From contig JAJVHZ010000011.1 of the NCBI GenBank assembly GCA_022072255.1, positions 108,927-172,926 of the forward strand: a stretch of DNA of 64,000 nucleotides, in the 5' to 3' direction. Numbering within the stretch: position 1 is the first letter of the stretch; each line of letters starts with the position of its first letter. Positions 26,806 through 37,675 of this stretch are shown here, one piece after another. The DNA is from Gammaproteobacteria bacterium. Its GTDB lineage: Bacteria; Pseudomonadota; Gammaproteobacteria; JAJPIJ01. The notes under the pieces are model-generated. The model saw only the letters and a list, made by a program, of their open reading frames with translations, made no database searches and had not been told where the DNA came from. Made by a program: the position numbers and the translations under genes.

Positions 26806-28263
26806 GTGGCAAACGTGACGGCGAGCGTGCAGGAGGAACTGAAACATCCCCGTGACTTGAGGGTGACCCTCGAGGAGATCGAGGAGCTGCTGAACAAACA
26901 GGAGATGGTGAGCGAGCTGACCGCCCGCCAGGACGCCCCGCGCCATGAACTGGTGATGGACCTCCTGCTGCGGCAGCAGCACGTCGAAGTCGAACGCCGT
27001 CTGCAGCAGTCCCACCCGGCCGACATCGCCTACGTGCTCGAGGGATTGCCGCTGGAACGGCGTCGGCTGGTCTGGAGCCTCGTCCGTCCCGAGGCGCGCG
27101 GCGCCGTGCTGCTGGAACTGGCGGAGGCGGTGCGCGAGGGACTGCTCGGCGAGATGCCGAGCAGGGAGATCATCGACGCCGCCGAACACCTGGATCCCGA
27201 AGAGATCGCCGATCTCGTTCCGAGCCTGCCCAGGGATACCGTCTTCGAACTCTTCAACTCCCTCGACCGCAAGGATCGGACGGAACTGCAGGACGTGCTT
27301 TCGTTTCCCGAGGGAAGCGTCGGCGCGCTGATGGATCTCGATGTGCTGAGCGTGCGTGACGATGTCGAGATCGAGGTGGTCCTTCGTTATCTGCGCAAGC
27401 GCAAGGACCTGCCGGAGCAGATCGATCAGATCATCGTTGTCGATCGCGCCGGCGTGCTGAAGGGCGTCCTGCCGGTCAAGCGCCTGCTGATCCATGACCC
27501 GGAGGTAATGGTCGGGGACGTGATGCTCCTGGAGCCGGTCTTGTTCCGTACCGACGAGTCCGCGCGCGATGCCGTGCAGGCCTTCGAGCGTTACGACCTG
27601 CGTACCGCGCCGGTCGTGAACACCCACAACCAGGTGGTAGGCGTGCTGAGCGTAGACCAGGTGATGGACTACGTGAACGAATCGGCCCAGCGCGAACGCC
27701 TGAGCCAGGTGGGACTGAGGGAGGACGAGGACCTGTTCGGTTCGGTGTGGAAGAGCAGCCGAAACCGCTGGACCTGGCTGGTGTTGAACCTCATGACGGC
27801 CTTCATCGCCTCGCGCGTCATCGGACTGTTCGAGGGCACGATCGAGCGGCTCGTCGCGCTGGCGGCGCTCATGCCGATCGTGGCGAGCATCGCGGGCAAC
27901 TCGGGCAACCAGACCGTGGCGCTGGTGATCCGCGGGCTGGCACTGAACCAGATCAACACCGGGAATTTCTACCGGCTGTTGTTCAAGGAGATCGGCATCA
28001 GCCTCGTCAACGGTCTGGTATGGGGATTGGTCGTCGGCTTCTTCGCATACCTCTTCTACAACAACGTCTCGCTGGCCGCCGTCATGGTCGCTGCGATGAT
28101 GCTCAACCTGCTGATGGGCGCCCTGGCCGGTGTGGTTTTTCCGCTGACGCTGCACATGCTGGGACGCGACCCGGTGATGGGCAGCAGCGTCATGCTCACC
28201 GCGATCACCGACAGCATGGGATTTTTCATCTTCCTGGGGCTGGCGGCGATGTTCCTGCGCTAG
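26806..28263 (+). CDS. mgtE: Magnesium transporter MgtE
   Basis: N-domain, tandem CBS domains and a C-terminal 5-TM MgtE domain (PIVASIAGNSGNQTVALVIRGLAL...). GTG start. Confidence 0.85.
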   Translation: MANVTASVQEELKHPRDLRVTLEEIEELLNKQEMVSELTARQDAPRHELVMDLLLRQQHVEVERRLQQSHPADIAYVLEGLPLERRRLVWSLVRPEARGAVLLELAEAVREGLLGEMPSREIIDAAEHLDPEEIADLVPSLPRDTVFELFNSLDRKDRTELQDVLSFPEGSVGALMDLDVLSVRDDVEIEVVLRYLRKRKDLPEQIDQIIVVDRAGVLKGVLPVKRLLIHDPEVMVGDVMLLEPVLFRTDESARDAVQAFERYDLRTAPVVNTHNQVVGVLSVDQVMDYVNESAQRERLSQVGLREDEDLFGSVWKSSRNRWTWLVLNLMTAFIASRVIGLFEGTIERLVALAALMPIVASIAGNSGNQTVALVIRGLALNQINTGNFYRLLFKEIGISLVNGLVWGLVVGFFAYLFYNNVSLAAVMVAAMMLNLLMGALAGVVFPLTLHMLGRDPVMGSSVMLTAITDSMGFFIFLGLAAMFLR

Positions 28264-28524
28264 CCGCGGCGATTCATCGCGGGTCGGAGGATGGCCTCCG
28301 GTACGGGAGGGTGTGACAGAAATGACCTGCAATCTGCACCAGCCGGGGATGATCGCTCACTGACGTCGAATCAATCAATCGCCAGGCATGGCACGTACGT
28401 CGTCTTCCTGACTGCGCGGGCGGAGTCGGCTCGCGAAACGCGCCTGCAGCATTCGGCCGCGTCTGCCCCGGGCCCGGCTCCACGTGTATAGTGAACGCCA
28501 AAAAACGGCCGGAGCGCGCGTGCG

Positions 28525-28785
28525 ATGCAGGCGGTTGTCATCATCCTCAAGGTTCTGGCGCTGGCGCTGGCGATCGCGGGGCTGGTGGGGGGCGGGATCT
28601 GCACCCTGTGCGGTGCGGTGTGGTCGTTCGAGGACGCCGGTGTCGGCATGCAGATCGTGGGGATCTCGCTGCTGTTCGCCGTGCCGTCGTATTTCCTGAC
28701 GCGGCTGCTTTGGCGTTCGTTGAATCGGCGACCGGGCGCCGCGCCGGCGCCGAGTGAGCCTGCATCGTCGGGCGACGGCCCCTAG
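28525..28785 (+). CDS. Small membrane protein, paralog A (86 aa; signal-peptide-like N-terminus ending in GGGIC, then a second TM helix)
   Basis: MQAVVIILKVLALALAIAGLVGGGICTLCGAVWSFE...MQIVGISLLFAVPSYFLTRLLWRSLNRRPG aligns with the next ORF, sharing [KR]VL.L.L...LV.G.GIC.....F...M...I..L..L...F......R.L.R.R.G. Confidence 0.5.
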   Translation: MQAVVIILKVLALALAIAGLVGGGICTLCGAVWSFEDAGVGMQIVGISLLFAVPSYFLTRLLWRSLNRRPGAAPAPSEPASSGDGP

Positions 28786-28793
28786 GTTGGCGC

Positions 28794-29045
28794 ATGGAAA
28801 CGATCTTCACGGCGCTGTGGTGGATTATCCGGGTGCTCATCCTGCTGGGACTGTTCTGCCTGGTCGCCGGCACCGGCATCTGCGGCTACATCTACTACGA
28901 ATTCAGCGCCCAGTATCACCGCCCGGAAATGGCGGACTGGCTGTTCATCGGGGCGCTGGGGTCGCTGGCTGCGCTGTTCGGGTGGATCTTCTGGGTCGTG
29001 AAGCGAGCCTTGTTCCGGCCGCGGTCAGGCGCTGATGGCTCCTGA
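28794..29045 (+). CDS. Small membrane protein, paralog B (83 aa)
   Basis: METIFTALWWIIRVLILLGLFCLVAGTGICGYIYYEFS...MADWLFIGALGSLAALFGWIFWVVKRALFRPRSG. Lies 9 bp after paralog A, and its stop overlaps the next gene by 11 nt. Confidence 0.5.
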   Translation: METIFTALWWIIRVLILLGLFCLVAGTGICGYIYYEFSAQYHRPEMADWLFIGALGSLAALFGWIFWVVKRALFRPRSGADGS

Positions 29046-29778
29046 ATACGCGCTGGTCCTGCACGCGGCCTTCGAATGGGCCGCCATCCTCGCCGGCGCC
29101 CGGCTGTACTTTCGCGAGCGCGGGCTGCATGGCTTGCGCGCCGCCCTGCAGCCGCAGAATTACGCGGTGCTGACCGGCTGCCTGCTCGGCGCGGCGATCG
29201 GCAACAAGGCGGTGTTCTGGGTGGAGAATCCGCAGCTCTGGGACCCGGACTCCGGCGTCGCGCAGTTCTTCCTGGGCGGACAGTCGATGGTCGGCGGCCT
29301 GGTGGGCGGCTATCTCGGCGTCGAACTCGGCAAGGTGGTCGCGGCCGTGCGCCATTCCACCGGAGATCATTTCGTCTTCCCGATCCTGCTGGGGATCGCG
29401 ATCGGGCGCCTCGGATGCCTGCTCGCCGGACTTCACGATCAAACCTTCGGCGTCCAGACCAGCCTGGCCTGGGGTATCGATTTCGGCGACGGAATAAGGC
29501 GGCATCCCACCCAGCTCTACGAGATCCTGTTCGCGGGGCTGCTCTGGTGGGCGTTCCGACGCGCGCGCGCACGGCTGGCGGGCTCCCCGGGCCTGATGTT
29601 CAAGATCCTCCTTGCCGGCTACCTGTCATGGAGGCTGCTTGTCGACGCACTCAAGCCCGTCCCGTACGCCTATCCCATGGGCCTGAGCGGCATACAGATC
29701 GTGTGCGCGGTGGCGCTGGCGTTCTATCTGCCGCTGCTCATTGCGCAGTTGCTGCGGCGCGAGGCGGCGCGCGCATGA
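29035..29778 (+). CDS. Lgt-family (prolipoprotein diacylglyceryl transferase-like) polytopic membrane protein, with a divergent signature
   Basis: RRHPTQLYEILFAGLLWWAF matches the Lgt RHPSQLYE block. IAIGRLGCLLAG occupies the place of the Lgt G-R-x-G-N-F-x-N-G-E signature, with N replaced by C/L. About 7 TM segments. ATG 29035 verified. The stop overlaps the downstream radical SAM start (ATGA). Confidence 0.65.
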   Translation: MAPEYALVLHAAFEWAAILAGARLYFRERGLHGLRAALQPQNYAVLTGCLLGAAIGNKAVFWVENPQLWDPDSGVAQFFLGGQSMVGGLVGGYLGVELGKVVAAVRHSTGDHFVFPILLGIAIGRLGCLLAGLHDQTFGVQTSLAWGIDFGDGIRRHPTQLYEILFAGLLWWAFRRARARLAGSPGLMFKILLAGYLSWRLLVDALKPVPYAYPMGLSGIQIVCAVALAFYLPLLIAQLLRREAARA

Positions 29779-31208
29779 GCCGCAAGGCGAGGCCGTACCT
29801 CTTCTACGACACCACCAGCGCGGTGTGCACGACCTGTCTGCGCGTGATCGAGGCGAAGATCCTGCTCAAGGACGGGAAGGCGTACATGGAGAAGTGGTGT
29901 CCTGCCCACGGCACCGAGCGGGTGCTGGTAAGCGACGATGCCGACTACTACCGGCAGTGCCGCGAGCTGTGGATCAAGCCGCCGGAGATGCCGAATACGT
30001 TCAACACCCGCATGCAATACGGTTGTCCGTACGACTGCGGCCTGTGCCCGGACCACATGCAGCACTCCTGCCTCACGCTGCTGGAACTGACCGATCACTG
30101 CAACCTTCGCTGCCCGATCTGCTACGCAGGTTCGGGGCCGGAGCGCGCGGGCTACCGGACGCTGTCCGAGATCGTGTGCATGCTGGACGCCATCGTCGCC
30201 AACGAGGGCGAGCCGGACGTCGTGCAGCTCTCCGGCGGCGAGCCGACGCTGCATCCGGATTTCTTCGCAGTGCTCGATGCGGCCCGCGCGCGCGGAGTCC
30301 GGCACCTGATGGTGAACACCAACGGCGTGCGCCTGGCGCAGGACCGCGAGTTCTGCGCACGGCTGTCGGAATACCGGAGGGCTTTCGAGGTCTACCTGCA
30401 GTTCGACTCGCGGCGGCCGGAGGCGCTGAAGGAGATGCGCGGCGCGGATCTCACCGGCGTGCGCGAGCAGGCGCTGCAGCATCTCAACGAGTTCGACATT
30501 TCCACCACACTGGTGGTGACGCTGAAGAAGGGCGTCAACGACGAGGAGATCGGCGATATCATCGGCTACGCGCTCGGCCAGTCCTGCGTGCGCGGGGTGA
30601 CGTTGCAGCCGATACAGGACGCCGGCCGTGTGCAGGGCTACGACGCGAGAGTCCATCGGCTGACGGTGAGCGAGATTCGCCGCCGCATCGCCGAGCAGTC
30701 GGGCGTGTTCACGGCCGCGGACATCCTGCCCGTGCCCTGCAACCCGGACACACTGGCCATGGGTTATGCGCTGAAGGTCGGGGGTGAGGTCGTGGCGCTC
30801 ACACGCTACCTCGACCCTGCGGTCCTGGTCGAGGGCGGCCGCAACACGATCAGCTTCGAGCACGACGGCGAATTGAGGCGGCGCGTCTTCGACCTCTTTT
30901 CGACCAACCACTCGCCGGCCTCGCAGGCGAATTGCCTTGCCGAGCTGATGTGCTGCCTGCCCCGCGTCAGTGCGCCCGCGGAGCTGACGTATCACAACGT
31001 CTTCCGCGTCCTCATAGTGCAGTTCATGGACGCGCTGTCGCTGGACATCCGTGCCCTGAAGAAGTCATGCATCCATATCGTCCAGCCCGACGGCCGTCTC
31101 ATCCCCTTCGAGTCGTTCAATCTCCTCTACCGCGACGGCCGTGCCGGGCTGTTGCGGACGCTGCGGCATGAGGTCGTCCGCGCAACCCGGGCGCGCCGGA
31201 CCTCCTGA
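29775..31208 (+). CDS. Radical SAM enzyme with an N-terminal rubredoxin/Zn-ribbon-like Cys2...Cys-His motif and an extra CxxxCxxC motif (multi-cluster radical SAM)
   Basis: Canonical ELTDHCNLRCPICYAGSG (CX3CX2C) plus a glycine-rich SAM motif LSGGEPTLH. Upstream GCPYDCGLCPDH is a second CX3CX2C. N-terminus CTTC...WCPAHG. Further C-terminal cysteines (PVPCNPD, NCLAELMCCLP, KSCIHIV). The track 29076 start is an out-of-frame extension through the Lgt-like gene. Confidence 0.8.
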   Translation: MSRKARPYLFYDTTSAVCTTCLRVIEAKILLKDGKAYMEKWCPAHGTERVLVSDDADYYRQCRELWIKPPEMPNTFNTRMQYGCPYDCGLCPDHMQHSCLTLLELTDHCNLRCPICYAGSGPERAGYRTLSEIVCMLDAIVANEGEPDVVQLSGGEPTLHPDFFAVLDAARARGVRHLMVNTNGVRLAQDREFCARLSEYRRAFEVYLQFDSRRPEALKEMRGADLTGVREQALQHLNEFDISTTLVVTLKKGVNDEEIGDIIGYALGQSCVRGVTLQPIQDAGRVQGYDARVHRLTVSEIRRRIAEQSGVFTAADILPVPCNPDTLAMGYALKVGGEVVALTRYLDPAVLVEGGRNTISFEHDGELRRRVFDLFSTNHSPASQANCLAELMCCLPRVSAPAELTYHNVFRVLIVQFMDALSLDIRALKKSCIHIVQPDGRLIPFESFNLLYRDGRAGLLRTLRHEVVRATRARRTS

Positions 31209-31307
31209 GGAAACGGCGGCGGTCGACGGCGACCGGATCCCGCGGTAACACAGGGGCGCGGCGGCGCGTTAGGGGCGTGGCCGTGCATTCCGTAGAATGC
31301 GGCAGTC

Positions 31308-33515
31308 GTGCAGAACAACCCGGCCCACCGCTTCTTCGCCACCGCGCCCAAGGGGGTTACCAGCCTGCTCGCGGATGAATTGCGCGCGCTCGGCGCCGGG
31401 CACATTCGCGAGGTGACTGCCGGGGTGCTGTTCGCCGGCACGCTGGAGGTCGGCTATCGCGCCTGCCTGTGGTCGCGCACGGCCAGCCGCGTGCTGCTGC
31501 AATTGTGCCGCTTCGCGGCGCCCGACGCCGATGCGCTCCATGCCGGGGTGCAGACTGTCGACTGGGACGGACATCTGGCCGCCGGGGGAACGTTGGCGGT
31601 CGACGCCAACGTTCGCGGTTCCCGCCTGAGGCACTCGCAGTTCGCGGCCCAGCGCGTGAAGGACGCGATTGCCGATCAACTCCGCGCCCGCCATGGCTTG
31701 CGCCCATCGGTGGATCTCGAACGGCCCGACCTGCGCATCAACGTCTTCATCGACCGCGACGTGGCGAGCCTCGCCGTCGATCTCTCCGGAGAGAGCCTGC
31801 ACCGCCGCGGTTATCGCGAGGATGCGGTCGTGGCGCCGCTGAAGCAGAATCTGGCCGCCGCGATCCTGCTGCGGGCGGGGTGGCCGGAGATCGCGCGCGG
31901 CGGCGGCGGATTCGTCGATCCCATGTGCGGCTCGGGCACCCTGATCGTCGAGGCCGCGTGGATCGCCGGCGATCGCGCGCCGGCACTGCTGCGGCGGGAT
32001 TTCGGCTTCGATCGCTGGCTGGGACACCTGCCGCGGCTGTGGCAGCGCCTGCGCGAGGAGGCCGAGGCGCGGGCCGCCGACGGGGGGCGACGGATCCCGT
32101 CGATGCGCGGTTTCGACGCCGATATGCGCGCCGTGCGCGCCGCGCGCGAGAACGTGGCGGCCGCCGGCGTCGCCGGGCATGTCCGCATCGACAGGCTCGA
32201 GCTCGCCGACCTGCCGGCACCCGAGGTCCCGACCGGCCTGCTGGCGGTCAATCCACCCTATGGCGAGCGTCTCGGGGAGAGCGAGGCGCTCGGGACGCTG
32301 TACGCGCGGCTGGGCGGAACGCTGCGCGCGCGCTACCAGGGATGGGAGGCGGCGGTCTTCACCGGCAACCCGCCGCTCGGCAGGTTCATCGGTCTGAAGG
32401 CGCGCCGGGTGCACACCTTCTACAACGGCGCCATCGAGTGCCGGCTGCTGCGATTCACCGTCGCGCCGGAGCATTTCGAGGCCTCGCGGGAAGAACGCGC
32501 CCAGGCCGGCAGCGAGCGGCCCTTGAGCGCAGGCGCGCAGATGTTCGCCAACAGGCTGCGCAAGAACATGCAGGCGCTGAAGCCGTGGGCGGAGCGGGAA
32601 GGCATCACCTGTTATCGAATCTACGATGCCGACATGCCCGAGTATGCCGCGGCCATCGACCTGTATCGGAGCACCGAGCCGTGCCTCGTCGTGCAGGAGT
32701 ATGCGCCGCCGAGAACGGTGGCCGAGGACAAGGCACGCCAGCGGCTGCGCGACATGCTGAACGCCATCCCGCCGACGCTCGGCGTGAGCCGCGGGCAGGT
32801 GTTCGTGAAGCGGCGCGAGCGTCAGCGCGGCGCGGCACAATACGAACGGCAGGCACAGACGGGGGCGTTCCACGAGGTGAGAGAGGGGCCATGCCGCCTG
32901 CTGGTGAATTTCAGCGACTATCTGGATACCGGACTATTTCTAGATCACCGGCTGACGCGCGCGATGGTGGGCGAGCTCGCACGCGGTCGCGACATGCTGA
33001 ATCTGTTCTGCTACACGGCCACCGCCAGCGTGCACGCCGCGCTGGCGGGAGCACGCTCGACCGTCTCGGTCGACATGTCCGCGACCTATCTCGACTGGGC
33101 GCGGCGGAATTTCGCGCTTAACGACATCGATCCGCGTGTCCACGCACTGGTACAGGCCGACTGCCTGTGGTGGCTGGAGCAGCAGGCCGGCGACCCTGAG
33201 GCGCCGCGATACGGCGTGATCTTTCTCGACCCCCCGACATTCTCGAACTCCAAGCGCATGCGGTCGAACTTCGATGTGCAGCGCGACCACGCGATGCTCG
33301 TGCGCCAGGCCGCGCACCTGCTCACCGGGGACGGCGTGCTGGTGTTCTCCACCAACCGGCAGCGCTTCCGCCTCGATCTCGCCGGTCTCGCGGGACTGCG
33401 GATCGAGGACGTGAGCGAGCGGACGATCCCCCGGGATTTCGCCCGCAACGCGACGGTCCATCGTTGCTGGCTGATGCGTGCGCCGGGGCGGCCACCGGAT
33501 GTCGGGCCGGGGTGA
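31308..33515 (+). CDS. rlmL: Bifunctional 23S rRNA (guanine2445-N2 / guanine2069-N7)-methyltransferase RlmKL
   Basis: 735 aa: THUMP region, first methyltransferase (DPMCGSGTLIVEAA, NPPYGERL) and C-terminal second methyltransferase (FLDPPTFSNSKRM). Confidence 0.85.
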   Translation: MQNNPAHRFFATAPKGVTSLLADELRALGAGHIREVTAGVLFAGTLEVGYRACLWSRTASRVLLQLCRFAAPDADALHAGVQTVDWDGHLAAGGTLAVDANVRGSRLRHSQFAAQRVKDAIADQLRARHGLRPSVDLERPDLRINVFIDRDVASLAVDLSGESLHRRGYREDAVVAPLKQNLAAAILLRAGWPEIARGGGGFVDPMCGSGTLIVEAAWIAGDRAPALLRRDFGFDRWLGHLPRLWQRLREEAEARAADGGRRIPSMRGFDADMRAVRAARENVAAAGVAGHVRIDRLELADLPAPEVPTGLLAVNPPYGERLGESEALGTLYARLGGTLRARYQGWEAAVFTGNPPLGRFIGLKARRVHTFYNGAIECRLLRFTVAPEHFEASREERAQAGSERPLSAGAQMFANRLRKNMQALKPWAEREGITCYRIYDADMPEYAAAIDLYRSTEPCLVVQEYAPPRTVAEDKARQRLRDMLNAIPPTLGVSRGQVFVKRRERQRGAAQYERQAQTGAFHEVREGPCRLLVNFSDYLDTGLFLDHRLTRAMVGELARGRDMLNLFCYTATASVHAALAGARSTVSVDMSATYLDWARRNFALNDIDPRVHALVQADCLWWLEQQAGDPEAPRYGVIFLDPPTFSNSKRMRSNFDVQRDHAMLVRQAAHLLTGDGVLVFSTNRQRFRLDLAGLAGLRIEDVSERTIPRDFARNATVHRCWLMRAPGRPPDVGPG

Positions 33516-33820
33516 CACGCACTGGTGGACGCGAGGCGATGCTGCGCCGGGGACGGGCGGGTGCGGGCGCGGTGATCCGACGACGCGGGCCCCGGGATCC
33601 GGTGCCCGGAACGGCCGGATCTCCGGGCGGCACCATGGCACGTTTCGTGAATCGACCAGACTGATTCTCCACCAATCGGCTGCGCGGCCGCGTCCTTGCC
33701 GGCGCCAGTTGCCGGGAGGATGGCCGAACAGTGGATGTCGCATCGAAAAATCAATAAGTTGTCTTCCGTGCCGGTCACCCCTGGGCGGTGCCCGGCAGCG
33801 CGGGAGTTTTGACGGCACCC

Positions 33821-36800
33821 ATGCGAATCAGAACGAGATTGGCAGTCGCGGCGCTCACGGCCTTCGCGGTGGCTGCCGTGCCGGGCGCATTGTTCTCGTA
33901 CCGGGTGACCCGCGAGCACGTCATCGCCGATGTCGCGCAGGAGGTCTCGGCGCACGTGACATGGCTCGCCACGCTGTTCCAATCCCGCGTGGTCACCGCC
34001 GAAAACACGCTGCCCGCGCTGCAGCGGCTGCTCGCCAGCGCGCTGGCGCAGCCGCCGCGGGCGGGGGAGCTCGAGGAATTCGACCGCCTGTTCGCGGCGG
34101 GCGACGACAGCGTCTACCGCAGTCGCCATGACGCGTTCGACGGCAAACGCGAGGCGGGCGCGTACATTCCGGGCTCCCCGCCGCTCGATGACGATCGCAA
34201 GCGCTTCTACGTGCGCGTGAAGGGAGTTCTCGACACCTTCGGCGCGCACACGAATCCGGATTTCCAGAATGTCTGGCTGCTCGATCACCATCGCGCCCTG
34301 GTGATATTCGATCGCCTGAAGCCGGACTTCGTGTTTCGGATGAGCCGCGAACAGGACTACACGCAGACGGCGTGGATGACCCTGACGGGGCCGGCCGCGA
34401 ACCCCGTGCGTACGCTGCGCTGGACTCCCGTCATTTTCGATCCCGTCCCGCGCACATGGATGGTGAGCGCGGTGTATCCGCTCGATGTCGGCGATGCCTG
34501 GCTCGGATCGGTGGGGTTCGATCTGCCGCTCGCGCAACTGACCGAGACGCTGGTGCACAGCAATCGCGAGTTCTCCGGCGTGGAGCATTTCCTGCTCGAC
34601 GAGAATGGCAGCTTCATATTGGCCGGCCCGTGGCAGTCGCAGCTCATGACGCGCGGACGGGCTCTCCCCGATCTCAGCCGCGAACCGGAACTGGACCGTC
34701 TGCTGCGCTGGCAGGCGACCCTGGACGCGGACGCCGGCCGTTCGCGCGTGGTGACGATGCGCGGCGTGCGCTACCTGGCGGTCCCCGCCACCCTCAAGAC
34801 GCTCAACTGGAAGTACGTCCGCCTCATCCCGTTGTCGGAGGTGCTCGCGCCCGTGCACCAGCTTTTCCTGCTCATCGGCAAGTCGGCCCTGCTGATCATG
34901 CTGTTGAGCGGTGTGGTCGTCGTGCTGGTCACACACGGCACGCTCGTGCAGCCGATATTGCGCCTGGCGACGGCGGCCCGCACCTACGGCAGCGGCGACA
35001 CGCGCATCCGCTTGGGCAAGGGTGGCGACGACGAGCTCGCGGAACTGGCCCTGAGCTTCGATGCGATGGCCGATGGACTGGAGCGCAGCCAGACCGAACT
35101 GCGCCAGCGCGAGGCGCGCTACCGCACCGTCGTGAACAGCGTGCGCGAGGTGATCTTCCAGCTGGGCGGCGAGGGACGGTGGCTGTTTCTCAGCGAGGCG
35201 TGGACCGCGCTGAGCGGGTACGCCATCGAGGACACGCTGGGCCGCAGCGTATACGAGTTCGTCGCCGTCGAGGACGTCGACGGGATCCGGGAACAGATCA
35301 GGGCGCTGACGAACCACGAGATCGAGGCGTGTCGCTGTGAATTCCGGCTCCGCACCCGCTCGGGGGACAGGCTCTGGGTCGAATTCCTCGCACAAACGGC
35401 GCGTTCGAGCGACGGCGAGGCCGTCTTCACGGGCACCATGGACGACGTCAGCGAGCGTTATTACCAGCGCGAGGTCAGCGCGTTGCTGCGACGGGCCGAG
35501 GAGTTCGTCAACGAGGGCTACCGCACCGAGCAGCTGTTGCAGTACTTCTGCGAGAAGCTCGCCTGGCTGTTCGGCTTCCCGCTCGTGGTCGCCGCGCTCA
35601 ACCGGGAGCAGAAGCTCGGCATCGTCGGCCGTTCGGACTGCGAGGTGGACTTCCTGCGCACGCTGAGCGGCTCGAGACGCCAGAACGCCGAGGTCGAGCT
35701 GTACGCGCGCGCGTTCGCAGAGGACAAGCCGCTCACGCTGACCGGCGAGGACGACGAGTCCGGCGAGTGGGCCCGGTCCGCCGCGCGCGCCGGGATCGGC
35801 TCGGCGATGGTCGTCCCAATCCGCATCCACGAGCAGCTCGGCGCGCTGCTCGGATTCCACATGCGCGGCAACGCCGGGCTCGCAGCCGAGCGCGTGCAGC
35901 GCATGGAGGAGCTCTGCCGGCGCATCGGCGGCGTGCTGCGCAGGGCCGAGGATCTGCAGTGGCTGCGGTTGCAGCGCACCGCGCTGGAGTCGGTGGCGAA
36001 CGGCATCATGATCGTGGACACCGATCACGAGGTCATCTGGATCAATCCGGCAATGGAACGGCTGAGCGGCTACCGCCGCGAGGACGTGATCGGCAGGAGT
36101 ACGAGGTTGTTTTCGGCCGGCTTCAGTTCCAGCGCTCAGCCGAGCGAGCTCGCCGAAGCGCGGCGGCGGGGCGGAACGTGGTCCGGAGAGATCGTCAATC
36201 GACGCAAGGACGGCAGCCTCTATACGGTGCACGAAACGGTCACGGCGTTGACCGATGCCTCCGGGAAGATCACGCACTTCGTCGCGGTACAGGCCGATAT
36301 CACCGCGCTGAAGGACGCGGAGGCGCGGCTGCAGCACATGGCCACGCACGATGCGTTGACCGGACTGTCCAATCGTCTGCTGTTCCGCGAACGCCTGAAG
36401 GAGGCGTTCTCGCGCGCCAACCGCTCCGGCAACCAGGTAGCGGTGCTACTGCTCGACCTGGATCGCTTCAAGGCGATCAATGACACCCTCGGCCACATGC
36501 GCGCCGACGAGCTGCTGCAGGCGGTCGCCGGCCGCTTGCACGGCTGCCTGCGCGAACACGACACCGTCGCCCGGCTCGGCGGCGACGAATTCACGGTTCT
36601 GCTGCCGGAGCTGGATACCTCCGAACACGCCGCCGTGGTGGCCGGCAAGATCCTCTCCTCGCTGAGCGAGCCGTTCGATATCGCCGGGCAGCCCGTGACT
36701 ACGACGACCAGCATCGGGATCAGCATCTACCCGCACGACGGCATCGACATCGACGACATACTGCAGCGCGCGGACGCCGCGATGTACCAGTCCAAGGCGA

Positions 36801-37675
36801 TGGGCCGGAACACTTACCAGTTCTACACGCGCGCGATACACGAACGCAGCATGCAGCGCCTGAGCATCGAGAAGGAGTTGCGCCGAGCGGTCGAACACAA
36901 CGAGTTCGTGCTGCATTTCCAGCCGATTGCCGATACCCGCAGCGGCACCATCGTCGGCGCCGAGGCGCTGGTCCGCTGGCGGCATCCCGTGCGGGGAGTG
37001 CTGCCGCCGACGGCGTTCATCGAGGTGGCCGAGGATTCCGGCCTCATACTGGCGATCGGAGACTGGGTGCTGCGTGCCGCGTGCGAGCAGGGCGCGGCGT
37101 GGGAGGCGCAGGGCATCCGGGACATGGAGGTGTCGGTGAATCTTTCGACGCGGCAGTTCCGCCAGTCCGACCTGGTGGAGCGGGTCGCGCACGCGTGCGC
37201 GCATGCGGGATTCAGCTCGCGCAGCATGCACATCGAGCTGACCGAGAGCCTGATGATGGACGACATGGAACAGGGCATAAGGACCATGAAGGCGTTGAAG
37301 GAGCTCGGCGTCAGCATCTCCATCGACGACTTCGGCGTCGGCTACTCGAGCCTTGCCTACCTGAAGCGATTCCCGCTGGACTCGCTGAAGATCGATCGCT
37401 CCTTCATCGAGACGGTGCCGCAGAATTCCGAGGCGACCGCGATCGCCAGCACGATACTGGCGATGGCCCGCACCCTCGGTCTGAGTGTCGTTGCCGAGGG
37501 CGTCGAGAACGAGGCGCAGCTCGAATTCCTGCGCGCGCTGGGCTGTCCGCGTTATCAGGGCTTTCTGCTCGGCAAACCGATGTCCGCCGAGGAACTTGGC
37601 GCATTCATCCGCCGCGGCCGTGCGCGCCAGGCGGAGCTACTCTCGCCGGTCGCGGCGATCCGCCCCGCCATCTAG
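33821..37675 (+). CDS. Large membrane sensor: periplasmic domain-TM-HAMP-PAS-GAF-PAS-GGDEF-EAL
   Basis: Signal/TM MRIRTRLAVAALTAFAVAAVPG, then a ~330-aa periplasmic region and TM LLIMLLSGVVVVLV. GGDEF RLGGDEFTVLL. EAL EALVRW...DDFGVGYSSL. The 33788 track start adds 11 codons. Confidence 0.8.
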   Translation: MRIRTRLAVAALTAFAVAAVPGALFSYRVTREHVIADVAQEVSAHVTWLATLFQSRVVTAENTLPALQRLLASALAQPPRAGELEEFDRLFAAGDDSVYRSRHDAFDGKREAGAYIPGSPPLDDDRKRFYVRVKGVLDTFGAHTNPDFQNVWLLDHHRALVIFDRLKPDFVFRMSREQDYTQTAWMTLTGPAANPVRTLRWTPVIFDPVPRTWMVSAVYPLDVGDAWLGSVGFDLPLAQLTETLVHSNREFSGVEHFLLDENGSFILAGPWQSQLMTRGRALPDLSREPELDRLLRWQATLDADAGRSRVVTMRGVRYLAVPATLKTLNWKYVRLIPLSEVLAPVHQLFLLIGKSALLIMLLSGVVVVLVTHGTLVQPILRLATAARTYGSGDTRIRLGKGGDDELAELALSFDAMADGLERSQTELRQREARYRTVVNSVREVIFQLGGEGRWLFLSEAWTALSGYAIEDTLGRSVYEFVAVEDVDGIREQIRALTNHEIEACRCEFRLRTRSGDRLWVEFLAQTARSSDGEAVFTGTMDDVSERYYQREVSALLRRAEEFVNEGYRTEQLLQYFCEKLAWLFGFPLVVAALNREQKLGIVGRSDCEVDFLRTLSGSRRQNAEVELYARAFAEDKPLTLTGEDDESGEWARSAARAGIGSAMVVPIRIHEQLGALLGFHMRGNAGLAAERVQRMEELCRRIGGVLRRAEDLQWLRLQRTALESVANGIMIVDTDHEVIWINPAMERLSGYRREDVIGRSTRLFSAGFSSSAQPSELAEARRRGGTWSGEIVNRRKDGSLYTVHETVTALTDASGKITHFVAVQADITALKDAEARLQHMATHDALTGLSNRLLFRERLKEAFSRANRSGNQVAVLLLDLDRFKAINDTLGHMRADELLQAVAGRLHGCLREHDTVARLGGDEFTVLLPELDTSEHAAVVAGKILSSLSEPFDIAGQPVTTTTSIGISIYPHDGIDIDDILQRADAAMYQSKAMGRNTYQFYTRAIHERSMQRLSIEKELRRAVEHNEFVLHFQPIADTRSGTIVGAEALVRWRHPVRGVLPPTAFIEVAEDSGLILAIGDWVLRAACEQGAAWEAQGIRDMEVSVNLSTRQFRQSDLVERVAHACAHAGFSSRSMHIELTESLMMDDMEQGIRTMKALKELGVSISIDDFGVGYSSLAYLKRFPLDSLKIDRSFIETVPQNSEATAIASTILAMARTLGLSVVAEGVENEAQLEFLRALGCPRYQGFLLGKPMSAEELGAFIRRGRARQAELLSPVAAIRPAI

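Follow-up and report, generated by a model that had tools for sequence, protein, structure and literature searches.

The prolipoprotein diacylglyceryl transferase Lgt attaches lipid, through a thioether, to a cysteine that lies beside a membrane helix at the periplasmic leaflet, and in Escherichia coli Lgt an arginine pair (i.e., R143 and R239) holds the phosphate of phosphatidylglycerol in a cavity that is open to that same leaflet. Tes (tetraether lipid synthase), in turn, performs radical C–C coupling at the termini of lipid tails, from the cytoplasmic side of the membrane. Its archaeal representative GDGT-MAS is such a lipid-tail C–C coupling enzyme, and was crystallised with bacterial phospholipids bound (PMC9433317). 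Bacterial homologues of Tes/GDGT-MAS of unknown role have been noted (PMC8941075, PMC9433317), and an August 2026 review treats them as bioinformatic detections only, with Lgt and lipoproteins never being mentioned (PMC13459092). In the 64-kb stretch of DNA analysed here (referred to as the window; contig JAJVHZ010000011.1 of a Gammaproteobacteria bacterium), genes related to both enzymes are found next to each other, i.e., an Lgt-like gene that overlaps a gene for a Tes/GDGT-MAS-like radical S-adenosylmethionine (SAM) protein, preceded by two open reading frames (ORFs) for small membrane proteins with a conserved cysteine. Comparison across genomes and metagenomes showed that the Lgt-like protein is the membrane partner of the Tes/GDGT-MAS-like radical SAM enzyme, and that both belong to a conserved three-part cassette of which most examples encode one to three small Cys-bearing membrane proteins. 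No curated family corresponds to this cassette, and literature searches returned no accessible paper that describes it or links Lgt with a radical SAM enzyme.

The cassette and its motifs are located in the window as follows:

29035..29778, + strand: Lgt-family paralog of 247 aa with an ATG start (from the ORF call and the Pfam LGT match)
29404..29439, + strand: remodelled signature GRLGCLLAGLHD of the paralog, residues 124–135, at the periplasmic end of transmembrane helix (TM) 4 (read from the DNA and from alignments)
29497..29523, + strand: kept RRHPTQLYE block of the paralog, residues 155–163, equal to E. coli Lgt residues 194–202 including H196 and E202 (read from the DNA and from alignments)
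29775..31208, + strand: Tes/GDGT-MAS-like radical SAM protein of 477 aa, carrying Zn_ribbon_HMPTM and Radical_SAM domains; its ATG and the TGA of the Lgt-like gene share the letters ATGA
29826..29909, + strand: rubredoxin-type motif C18-X2-C21-X20-C42-X2-H45 of the radical SAM protein, invariant in 68/68 orthologs
30024..30122, + strand: N-auxiliary cluster motif of the radical SAM protein (C84, C88, C91, H94, H97, C99), followed by CX3CX2C (C109, C113, C116), invariant in 68/68 orthologs
28525..28785, + strand: small membrane protein copy 1 of 86 aa, with GGGIC and Cys26 (nt 28600–28602) 17 residues past Lys9
28794..29045, + strand: small membrane protein copy 2 of 83 aa, with AGTGICG and Cys30 (nt 28881–28883) 17 residues past Arg13

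The ORF at 29035–29778 matched the Pfam family PF01790 (LGT) over residues 5–234 with 60.5 bits (E=1.9e-16) against a cut-off of 24.9, so that its family assignment is far beyond chance. It stayed under the cut-offs of both Lgt equivalog models (TIGR00544, 29.3 vs. 118.9; NF000778, 31.2 vs. 334), as did the homologs in locus L034 and the natural fusion protein P0184 (see below), and its sole relative in the PDB by profile search was E. coli Lgt (5azb, E=5e-7). The protein is therefore a member of the Lgt superfamily, but not an Lgt by curated definition, even though source databases name it "prolipoprotein diacylglyceryl transferase". It shares with E. coli Lgt (5azb/5azc) the Pfam family, a predicted seven-TM body, and the RHP(S/T)QLYE block, but differs from it by an identity of ~23%, by a shorter N-terminus, and by its signature GRLGCLLAG-LHD, with GRLGCLLAGLHD standing where Lgt has GRLGNFINGELWG (E. 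coli G142-RLGNFINGELW-G154). An earlier note on this DNA, made from the sequence alone, had already pointed to the kept block and to the substitution of the G-R-x-G-N-F-x-N-G-E signature. Both were read back from the DNA (i.e., as RRHPTQLYE at residues 155–163 and as GRLGCLLAGLHD), and the substitution is no one-off, since its C128 was found in 125/125 members of the family.

Individual residues were mapped by aligning the ORF with E. coli K-12 Lgt and 17 homologs. R143, H196, E202, Y235, and R239 of E. coli Lgt are all kept (as R125, H157, E163, Y196, and R200, respectively), whereas E243 is changed into D204, N146 into C128, H103 into V86, and Y26 into A16, and the four residues E151-L-W-G154 are deleted. 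According to a 2026 mutational study, E. coli Lgt function absolutely needs Y26, H103, R143, N146, G154, and R239 (PMC13251419), and of these six only R143 (R125) and R239 (R200) are kept in the Lgt-like protein. The N146-to-Cys change also occurs in Leptospira (L. interrogans) Lgt and in MSMEG_5408 of Mycobacterium smegmatis (PMC13251419), so that this change alone is not unique to the Lgt-like family. As far as their descriptions allow comparison, these two proteins resemble the paralog in N146C, with an Lgt activity that is presumed or was measured as weak (PMC13251419), but they are discussed as lipoprotein transferases and have no reported radical SAM or small Cys partner.

The AlphaFold2 (AF2) model of the Lgt-like protein (pLDDT 89.6, a predicted local distance difference test score) consists of seven long helices, and its predicted periplasmic loop between TM4 and TM5 measures only ~23 residues, which indicates that the protein would be without a periplasmic head domain. 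Based on the positive-inside pattern, the protein is predicted to have the Lgt topology, with seven TMs, the N-terminus outside, and the C-terminus inside. Pattern and model together locate the C-terminus on the cytoplasmic side and assign R125, C128, and D135 to the periplasmic half of the membrane, in agreement with PMC4728403. The comparison with E. coli Lgt shows that residues tied to ordinary prolipoprotein handling have been lost, probably along with the head domain, while the arginine pair for the phospholipid phosphate has been kept.

A word-indexed search with the Lgt-like protein yielded 1,869 matches, the best 120 of which were all 240–260 aa long with 54–94% identity, and stemmed from Methylococcus, Collimonas, Azonexus, Sulfuricella, and many metagenome-assembled genomes (MAGs); the window proteins themselves are identical to database entries of Gammaproteobacteria MAGs. 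An exhaustive profile search among 1.84 billion cluster representatives (at the 50% identity level) retrieved 331 of them at E≤1e-30, a number that rose to 1,933 at E≤1e-10, and a pattern scan of one genome per species confirmed the gene in at least 522 species, out of which 80 loci were kept for a synteny survey. These 80 genome loci come from Beta- and Gammaproteobacteria (including Xanthomonadales), Cyanobacteria, Verrucomicrobiota, Planctomycetota, Acidobacteriota, Myxococcales, and a Firmicute (Cohnella).

Conservation was scored in a set of 125 members from several phyla with 35–88% identity. In at least 123 of them E97, K100, G110, D111, G124, R125, G127, C128, D135, T137, G139, G151, D152, R156, H157, P158, Y162, Y196, R200, and Q221 were conserved, and H10 was kept in all 121 members that cover this position. 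The signature residues R125, G127, C128, and D135 are invariant in 124–125 of the 125, with Cys at the N146 position (C128) in every one, and in the block R156, H157, and Y162 are invariant, with P158 present in 124/125. In comparison with E. coli Lgt, the residues H10, E97, K100, D135, T137, D152, and Q221 are invariant in the Lgt-like family only. Such conservation of polar residues across the 125 members argues for a selected polar site, and not for a pseudogene or a passive anchor. The Lgt-like gene thus represents a distinct and strongly conserved subfamily of the Lgt superfamily.

For the radical SAM partner, the best curated model was TrsS (NF045646), which matched near full length with 314.1 vs. 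a cut-off of 490, followed by Tes (NF045702) with 268.4 vs. 450. Since both cut-offs were missed, the enzyme belongs to neither curated family. Its closest solved structure is that of the archaeal tetraether synthase GDGT-MAS (PDB 7tol, E=4e-63), and the AF2 model of the partner (pLDDT 77.8) aligned to 7tol with a TM-score of 0.76 over 500 columns at 27% identity. The next folds (SkfB, MoaA, and viperin) reached TM-scores of at most 0.39, leaving 7tol as the sole full-length structural relative. The partner shares with GDGT-MAS/Tes (7tol/7tom) the same four-domain architecture, with the rubredoxin, N-auxiliary CX3CX2C+His, and radical SAM CX3CX2C motifs. The spacing of its rubredoxin motif is the same as that of C9X2C12X20C33X2H36 in GDGT-MAS (PMC9433317), and its cluster-motif region aligns to CPYDCGLCPNH...CNLNCPIC of that enzyme. 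The 68 orthologs furthermore share a conserved C-terminal Cys set (C322, C393, C394, and C432). The partner differs from GDGT-MAS/Tes by the rearrangement of this C-terminal Cys set, by a shorter linker ahead of the C-terminal domain, and by being bacterial and paired with an Lgt-like protein. Membership of the partner among the SPASM/twitch peptide maturases is not supported, as SPASM families matched the radical SAM core only (30–50 bits) and SkfB and SuiB reached TM-scores of ~0.35. In source databases the partner goes under "radical SAM protein", under "7,8-dihydro-6-hydroxymethylpterin dimethyltransferase", or under "tetraether lipid synthase"; the latter two names, which JGI gives to bacterial members of its family (e.g., P0306, P0343, and P0417), are carried over from archaeal MJ0619/Tes without evidence.

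Across the 80 genome loci, which come from at least eight phyla, the radical SAM gene was located directly downstream of the Lgt-like gene and on the same strand in 73, and one of the seven remaining loci is a contig end. The reverse search, departing from the radical SAM side in metagenomes, gave 80 loci, 62 of which were informative (i.e., with at least 800 nt upstream), and 58 of these 62 carried the Lgt-like gene upstream. The stop and start codons of the pair often overlap, as they do in the window (ATGA at 29775), where the two genes are coupled in translation. The pairing of both genes is therefore near-obligate, with linkage exceeding 90% when searched from either gene, and the operon with a radical SAM gene that the earlier note had read from the window recurs in many other genomes. 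That note had also held that lgt is normally found beside thyA, which is correct for E. coli K-12, where lgt abuts thyA (the Lgt-like gene being flanked by small ORFs and the radical SAM gene instead), but which describes an E. coli-type arrangement and not a universal rule. No canonical or thyA-linked lgt was found in the 64-kb window, nor was a canonical lgt found in any of the fetched loci.

The two proteins also occur as one. P0184 (733 aa) is a natural fusion of LGT, Zn_ribbon_HMPTM, and Radical_SAM domains, joined by a Pro/Ala-rich linker of ~48 residues, and its cluster counts three members (P0184, P0271, and P0272) on three separate ENA metagenome contigs. In this arrangement the radical SAM domain can only follow the C-terminus of the membrane protein, on the cytoplasmic side, and the fusion shows that the Lgt-like protein and the radical SAM enzyme are physically linked. 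Mobile copies were found in Bacteroidota, where the cassette of Chondrinema litorale is carried on a 162-kb plasmid (NZ_CP111057.1; L165, 4854–7174), its genes bearing the labels "Lgt family protein", "radical SAM protein", and "hypothetical protein", and that of Persicobacter psychrovividus on the 1.07-Mb chromid pPP1 (L166, 4962–7268). These plasmid and chromid cassettes hold the Lgt-like, radical SAM, and small Cys protein genes, all of which overlap or abut. The plasmid copies and the fusion argue for an accessory, specialised role. Together with the failed equivalog models and the loss of four of the six essential residues, they support the proposal of the earlier note that this is an Lgt-family paralog with a changed role; that note did not recognise the partner as Tes/GDGT-MAS-like, nor did it list the two small ORFs upstream.

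The two small ORFs upstream of the Lgt-like gene are tandem paralogs, and related ORFs occupy the same position in Methylococcus and Collimonas. Copy 1 is predicted to form a two-helix hairpin with both ends in the cytoplasm, while copy 2, with its stop codon, runs 11 nt into the Lgt-like gene. Neither Pfam nor NCBIfam gave a family match for the small proteins. A hidden Markov model (HMM) of this upstream type was built from 18 seeds and scanned at E≤1e-4 against 83 sources (the genome loci and the window). Copy 1 matched it at E=1.2e-17 and copy 2 at E=3.2e-21, with 76% and 84% identity, respectively, to their orthologs in the nearest MAG locus (L005). The upstream type was detected in 40/83 sources, always on the same strand, directly upstream of or sometimes between both enzyme genes, and often in two or three tandem copies. 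Its Cys resides in a G-x-G-x-C-(G) motif, 17 residues past the last cytoplasmic Lys/Arg in 35 cases and 20 residues past it in 16, the latter spacing corresponding to a variant with a three-residue insertion. The two upstream ORFs of the window are probably part of the system and of the same operon as the Lgt-like gene.

A different small protein, the downstream type, directly follows the radical SAM gene, in the same orientation, in 20/83 sources, among Cyanobacteria, Xanthomonadales, Planctomycetota, Cohnella, and others. Its C-terminal Cys is invariant (22/22) and usually followed by Phe. The small proteins of Bacteroidota end in K-x16-C, with GAGVCG or GTGICG, and the GTGICG of the chromid copy is the motif of the window. 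Altogether, small Cys proteins were detected in 60/83 sources, and in more when divergent copies were read by eye. A protein of 955 aa (P0258) combines an Lgt-like domain with HEAT repeats and a C-terminal multi-helix hydrophobic region ending in ...VVALCATGVIQRHGP, a region that, from its sequence, might represent the small Cys protein in fused form.

The small proteins resemble lipoprotein signal peptides in having N-terminal Lys/Arg, a hydrophobic stretch, Gly-rich small residues, and a conserved Cys, but differ from them in that further hydrophobic helix follows the Cys, and in that the motif of many lineages is situated in the last helix instead of at the N-terminus. Since the Cys lies within a helix or at the C-terminus of the protein, cleavage of the small proteins by signal peptidase II is not expected. 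A gene with Sel1-like repeats is inserted between both enzyme genes in Collimonas, Undibacterium, and Rhodocyclales, at the following loci:

L003, 6749–7603: Sel1-like insert
L009: Sel1-like insert
L010: Sel1-like insert
L025, 6728–7654: Sel1-like insert
L019, 6629–7444: Sel1-like insert
L027, 6620–7429: Sel1-like insert

The N-terminus of this insert is lipobox-like (LIGGTGC or GGMAC), with its Cys 16–17 residues past Arg/Lys.

From the established chemistry of Lgt and Tes, a lipidation of the small-protein Cys followed by modification of the lipid tails can be proposed. By analogy with both enzymes we consider it quite plausible, if somewhat short of probable, that the paralog lipidates the Cys of the small proteins and that the lipid thus tethered has its tails modified by the radical SAM enzyme. 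The paralog, keeping the Lgt body and the arginine pair R125/R200 (i.e., R143/R239 of E. coli Lgt), would bind a glycerophospholipid in its cavity and move its lipid moiety to the thiol of the small-protein Cys, which, at mostly 17 residues from the cytoplasmic Lys/Arg, would bring the GxGxC motif to the depth of the Lgt active site. The N146-to-Cys change and the loss of H103, Y26, and probably the head domain may have retuned acceptor choice, from cleavable signal peptides to uncleaved hairpins. As the topology of the fusion dictates, the radical SAM enzyme would dock where the C-terminus of the paralog faces the cytoplasm, and might apply Tes-type radical chemistry to the acyl-chain termini of the tethered lipid (e.g., C–C coupling or macrocyclisation), in which case a covalent proteolipid would result whose tails are cross-linked. 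In its most specific form, i.e., a thioether glycerolipid on the intramembrane Cys of the hairpins, the tails of which are then cross-linked into macrocyclic or membrane-spanning structures by the docked radical SAM enzyme, the proposal is tentative, and we would doubt it sooner than expect it. Taken as a whole, the cassette may realistically constitute a new kind of proteolipid-making system.

Several observations weigh against lipidation of the small proteins followed by tail modification. The Lgt site is periplasmic and the radical SAM enzyme cytoplasmic, so the two steps would have to take place at opposite ends of the same lipid. H103, to which catalysis by Lgt has been ascribed as a proposal, is a Val in the paralog, and thiol activation would need another residue. 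At E≤1e-4, the HMM scan left 23/83 sources without a detected small protein, some of these being contig ends or containing divergent copies, and the residue preceding the Cys is mostly Ile, Leu, or Val and not the Gly, Ala, or Ser of the lipobox pattern [LVI][ASTVI][GAS]C. In the partner, Tyr459 of GDGT-MAS is replaced by Ile and Met439 by Val (in the HMMER alignment to 7tol, with a chain numbering offset of 20), and several C-terminal cluster Cys positions of GDGT-MAS differ as well. Tyr459 is strictly conserved in archaeal homologues and Met439 is a ligand of the C-terminal cluster of GDGT-MAS (PMC9433317), and these changes imply that the radical chemistry of the partner may differ from that of Tes, despite its Tes-like build. 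Moreover, a Foldseek search with the seven-helix model of the paralog (pLDDT 89.6) against the PDB gave no significant match, 5azb included, so that the fold identity of the paralog with Lgt rests on sequence profiles. The method may be of limited reach for membrane proteins made of helices only, or the fold may truly be rearranged. For every member of the family, the proposed mechanism is drawn from sequences and models.

Other roles for the cassette can account for part of these data. The radical SAM enzyme might couple or modify the tails of free membrane phospholipids into membrane-spanning or macrocyclic lipids, with the Lgt-like protein binding, orienting, or head-group-processing the lipid for it and the small proteins serving as structural or regulatory subunits. 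The full-length similarity of the partner to GDGT-MAS, the kept phospholipid-binding arginine pair, and the physical complex indicated by fusion and linkage are all consistent with this, and membrane-spanning lipid synthesis has indeed been proposed for bacterial Tes homologues (PMC8941075). However, it leaves unexplained why two unrelated-looking types of small protein, often in tandem copies, carry a Cys at a conserved membrane depth, and the Tes homologue of T. ethanolicus made no membrane-spanning lipid when expressed in E. coli (10.1101/2022.04.21.487849). We regard such remodelling of free lipids as possible but somewhat doubtful. It is also the case that, to our knowledge, membrane-spanning lipids are not reported for most of the lineages that carry the cassette, which counts against it further. 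Alternatively, the ORFs that neighbour the radical SAM gene, being short, tandem, and Cys-bearing, resemble the precursors of ribosomally synthesised and post-translationally modified peptides, and the auxiliary clusters of the partner would fit an enzyme that modifies the small proteins directly (e.g., through a thioether or a change at the Cys), with the Lgt-like protein as a scaffold or presenting chaperone. This is unlikely, as the target Cys lies ~17 residues deep from the cytoplasmic face and thus far from a cytoplasmic active site, as the nearest relatives of the partner are lipid enzymes and not SPASM/twitch maturases (TM-score 0.35 to SkfB and SuiB), and as the Lgt-like protein has invariant polar residues, which suggest that it is catalytic or binds a specific ligand.

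Those same residues, ~20 polar or charged positions of the Lgt cavity region that stay invariant at 35–88% identity across several phyla, also speak against a catalytically inactive paralog that does no more than hold the radical SAM enzyme at the membrane. Although the loss of four of the six essential Lgt residues and the tethering relationship seen in the fusion would suit a dead anchor, we consider it decidedly unlikely. Finally, the paralog might be an ordinary second Lgt, i.e., a redundant or substrate-specialised diacylglyceryl transferase of normal lipoproteins as in Streptomyces or M. smegmatis, with an incidental radical SAM neighbour. Its database annotation is indeed Lgt, ~1,300 genomes carry lgt in two copies, and N146C is found both in MSMEG_5408, whose activity is low, and in Leptospira Lgt (PMC13251419). 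Nevertheless, a radical SAM linkage of >90% in both directions across phyla, the existence of fusions, the failed equivalog cut-offs, the loss of Y26, H103, N146, and G154, and the predicted lack of a head domain make this highly improbable.

Whichever of these roles applies, a large bacterial branch of Tes/GDGT-MAS carries a remodelled Lgt in >90% of loci and small Cys membrane proteins in 60/83 sources, which means that candidate substrates and a candidate attachment site can now be named for the bacterial Tes-like homologues, together with carriers that can be cultured (e.g., Collimonas, Massilia, Dyella, Methylococcus, or Nostoc). The labels Lgt, tetraether lipid synthase, and pterin methyltransferase can mislead analyses of the lipoprotein pathway, surveys of antibiotic targets, and surveys of brGDGT (branched glycerol dialkyl glycerol tetraether) producers. 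Should the proposed lipidation and tail modification be true, the cassette would represent a previously unrecognised post-translational system, the first function for bacterial Tes/GDGT-MAS homologues, and the first neofunctionalised Lgt.

As for the surroundings of the cassette, a promoter and terminator scan of 28200–31400 gave nothing informative, and tRNA and Rfam scans of the window were both empty. All-against-all clustering of flanking ORFs returned only lineage-specific neighbours, as spurious high-GC ORFs and antisense frames swamped the signal. The flanking genes mgtE and rlmL of the window were rejected as linked genes, since they recur only in the closest MAG locus (and rlmL weakly in L013). 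Downstream of rlmL, at 33788–37675 on the + strand, the window contains a 1,295-aa ORF for a large multi-domain protein that is unlinked to the cassette in other loci. An anti-phage defence role was rejected as well, PADLOC having given only generic radical SAM similarity to pVip. In Methylococcus sp. ANG (L001, 9394–12738), a type I-E-like CRISPR-Cas system (Cas3 and Cse1) and a BrnT/BrnA toxin-antitoxin pair are located just downstream of the cassette. In four Burkholderiales loci (L039, L042, L044, and L045, from Ideonella, Pelomonas, and Aquabacterium), a long ORF on the same strand, ~0.3–3 kb upstream, contains ...HPNQFALLGQRRFAPFFWTQFLGA.NDN.FKFAF...; this ORF presumably resembles a lysophospholipid transporter/acyltransferase, and its position may be lineage synteny only.

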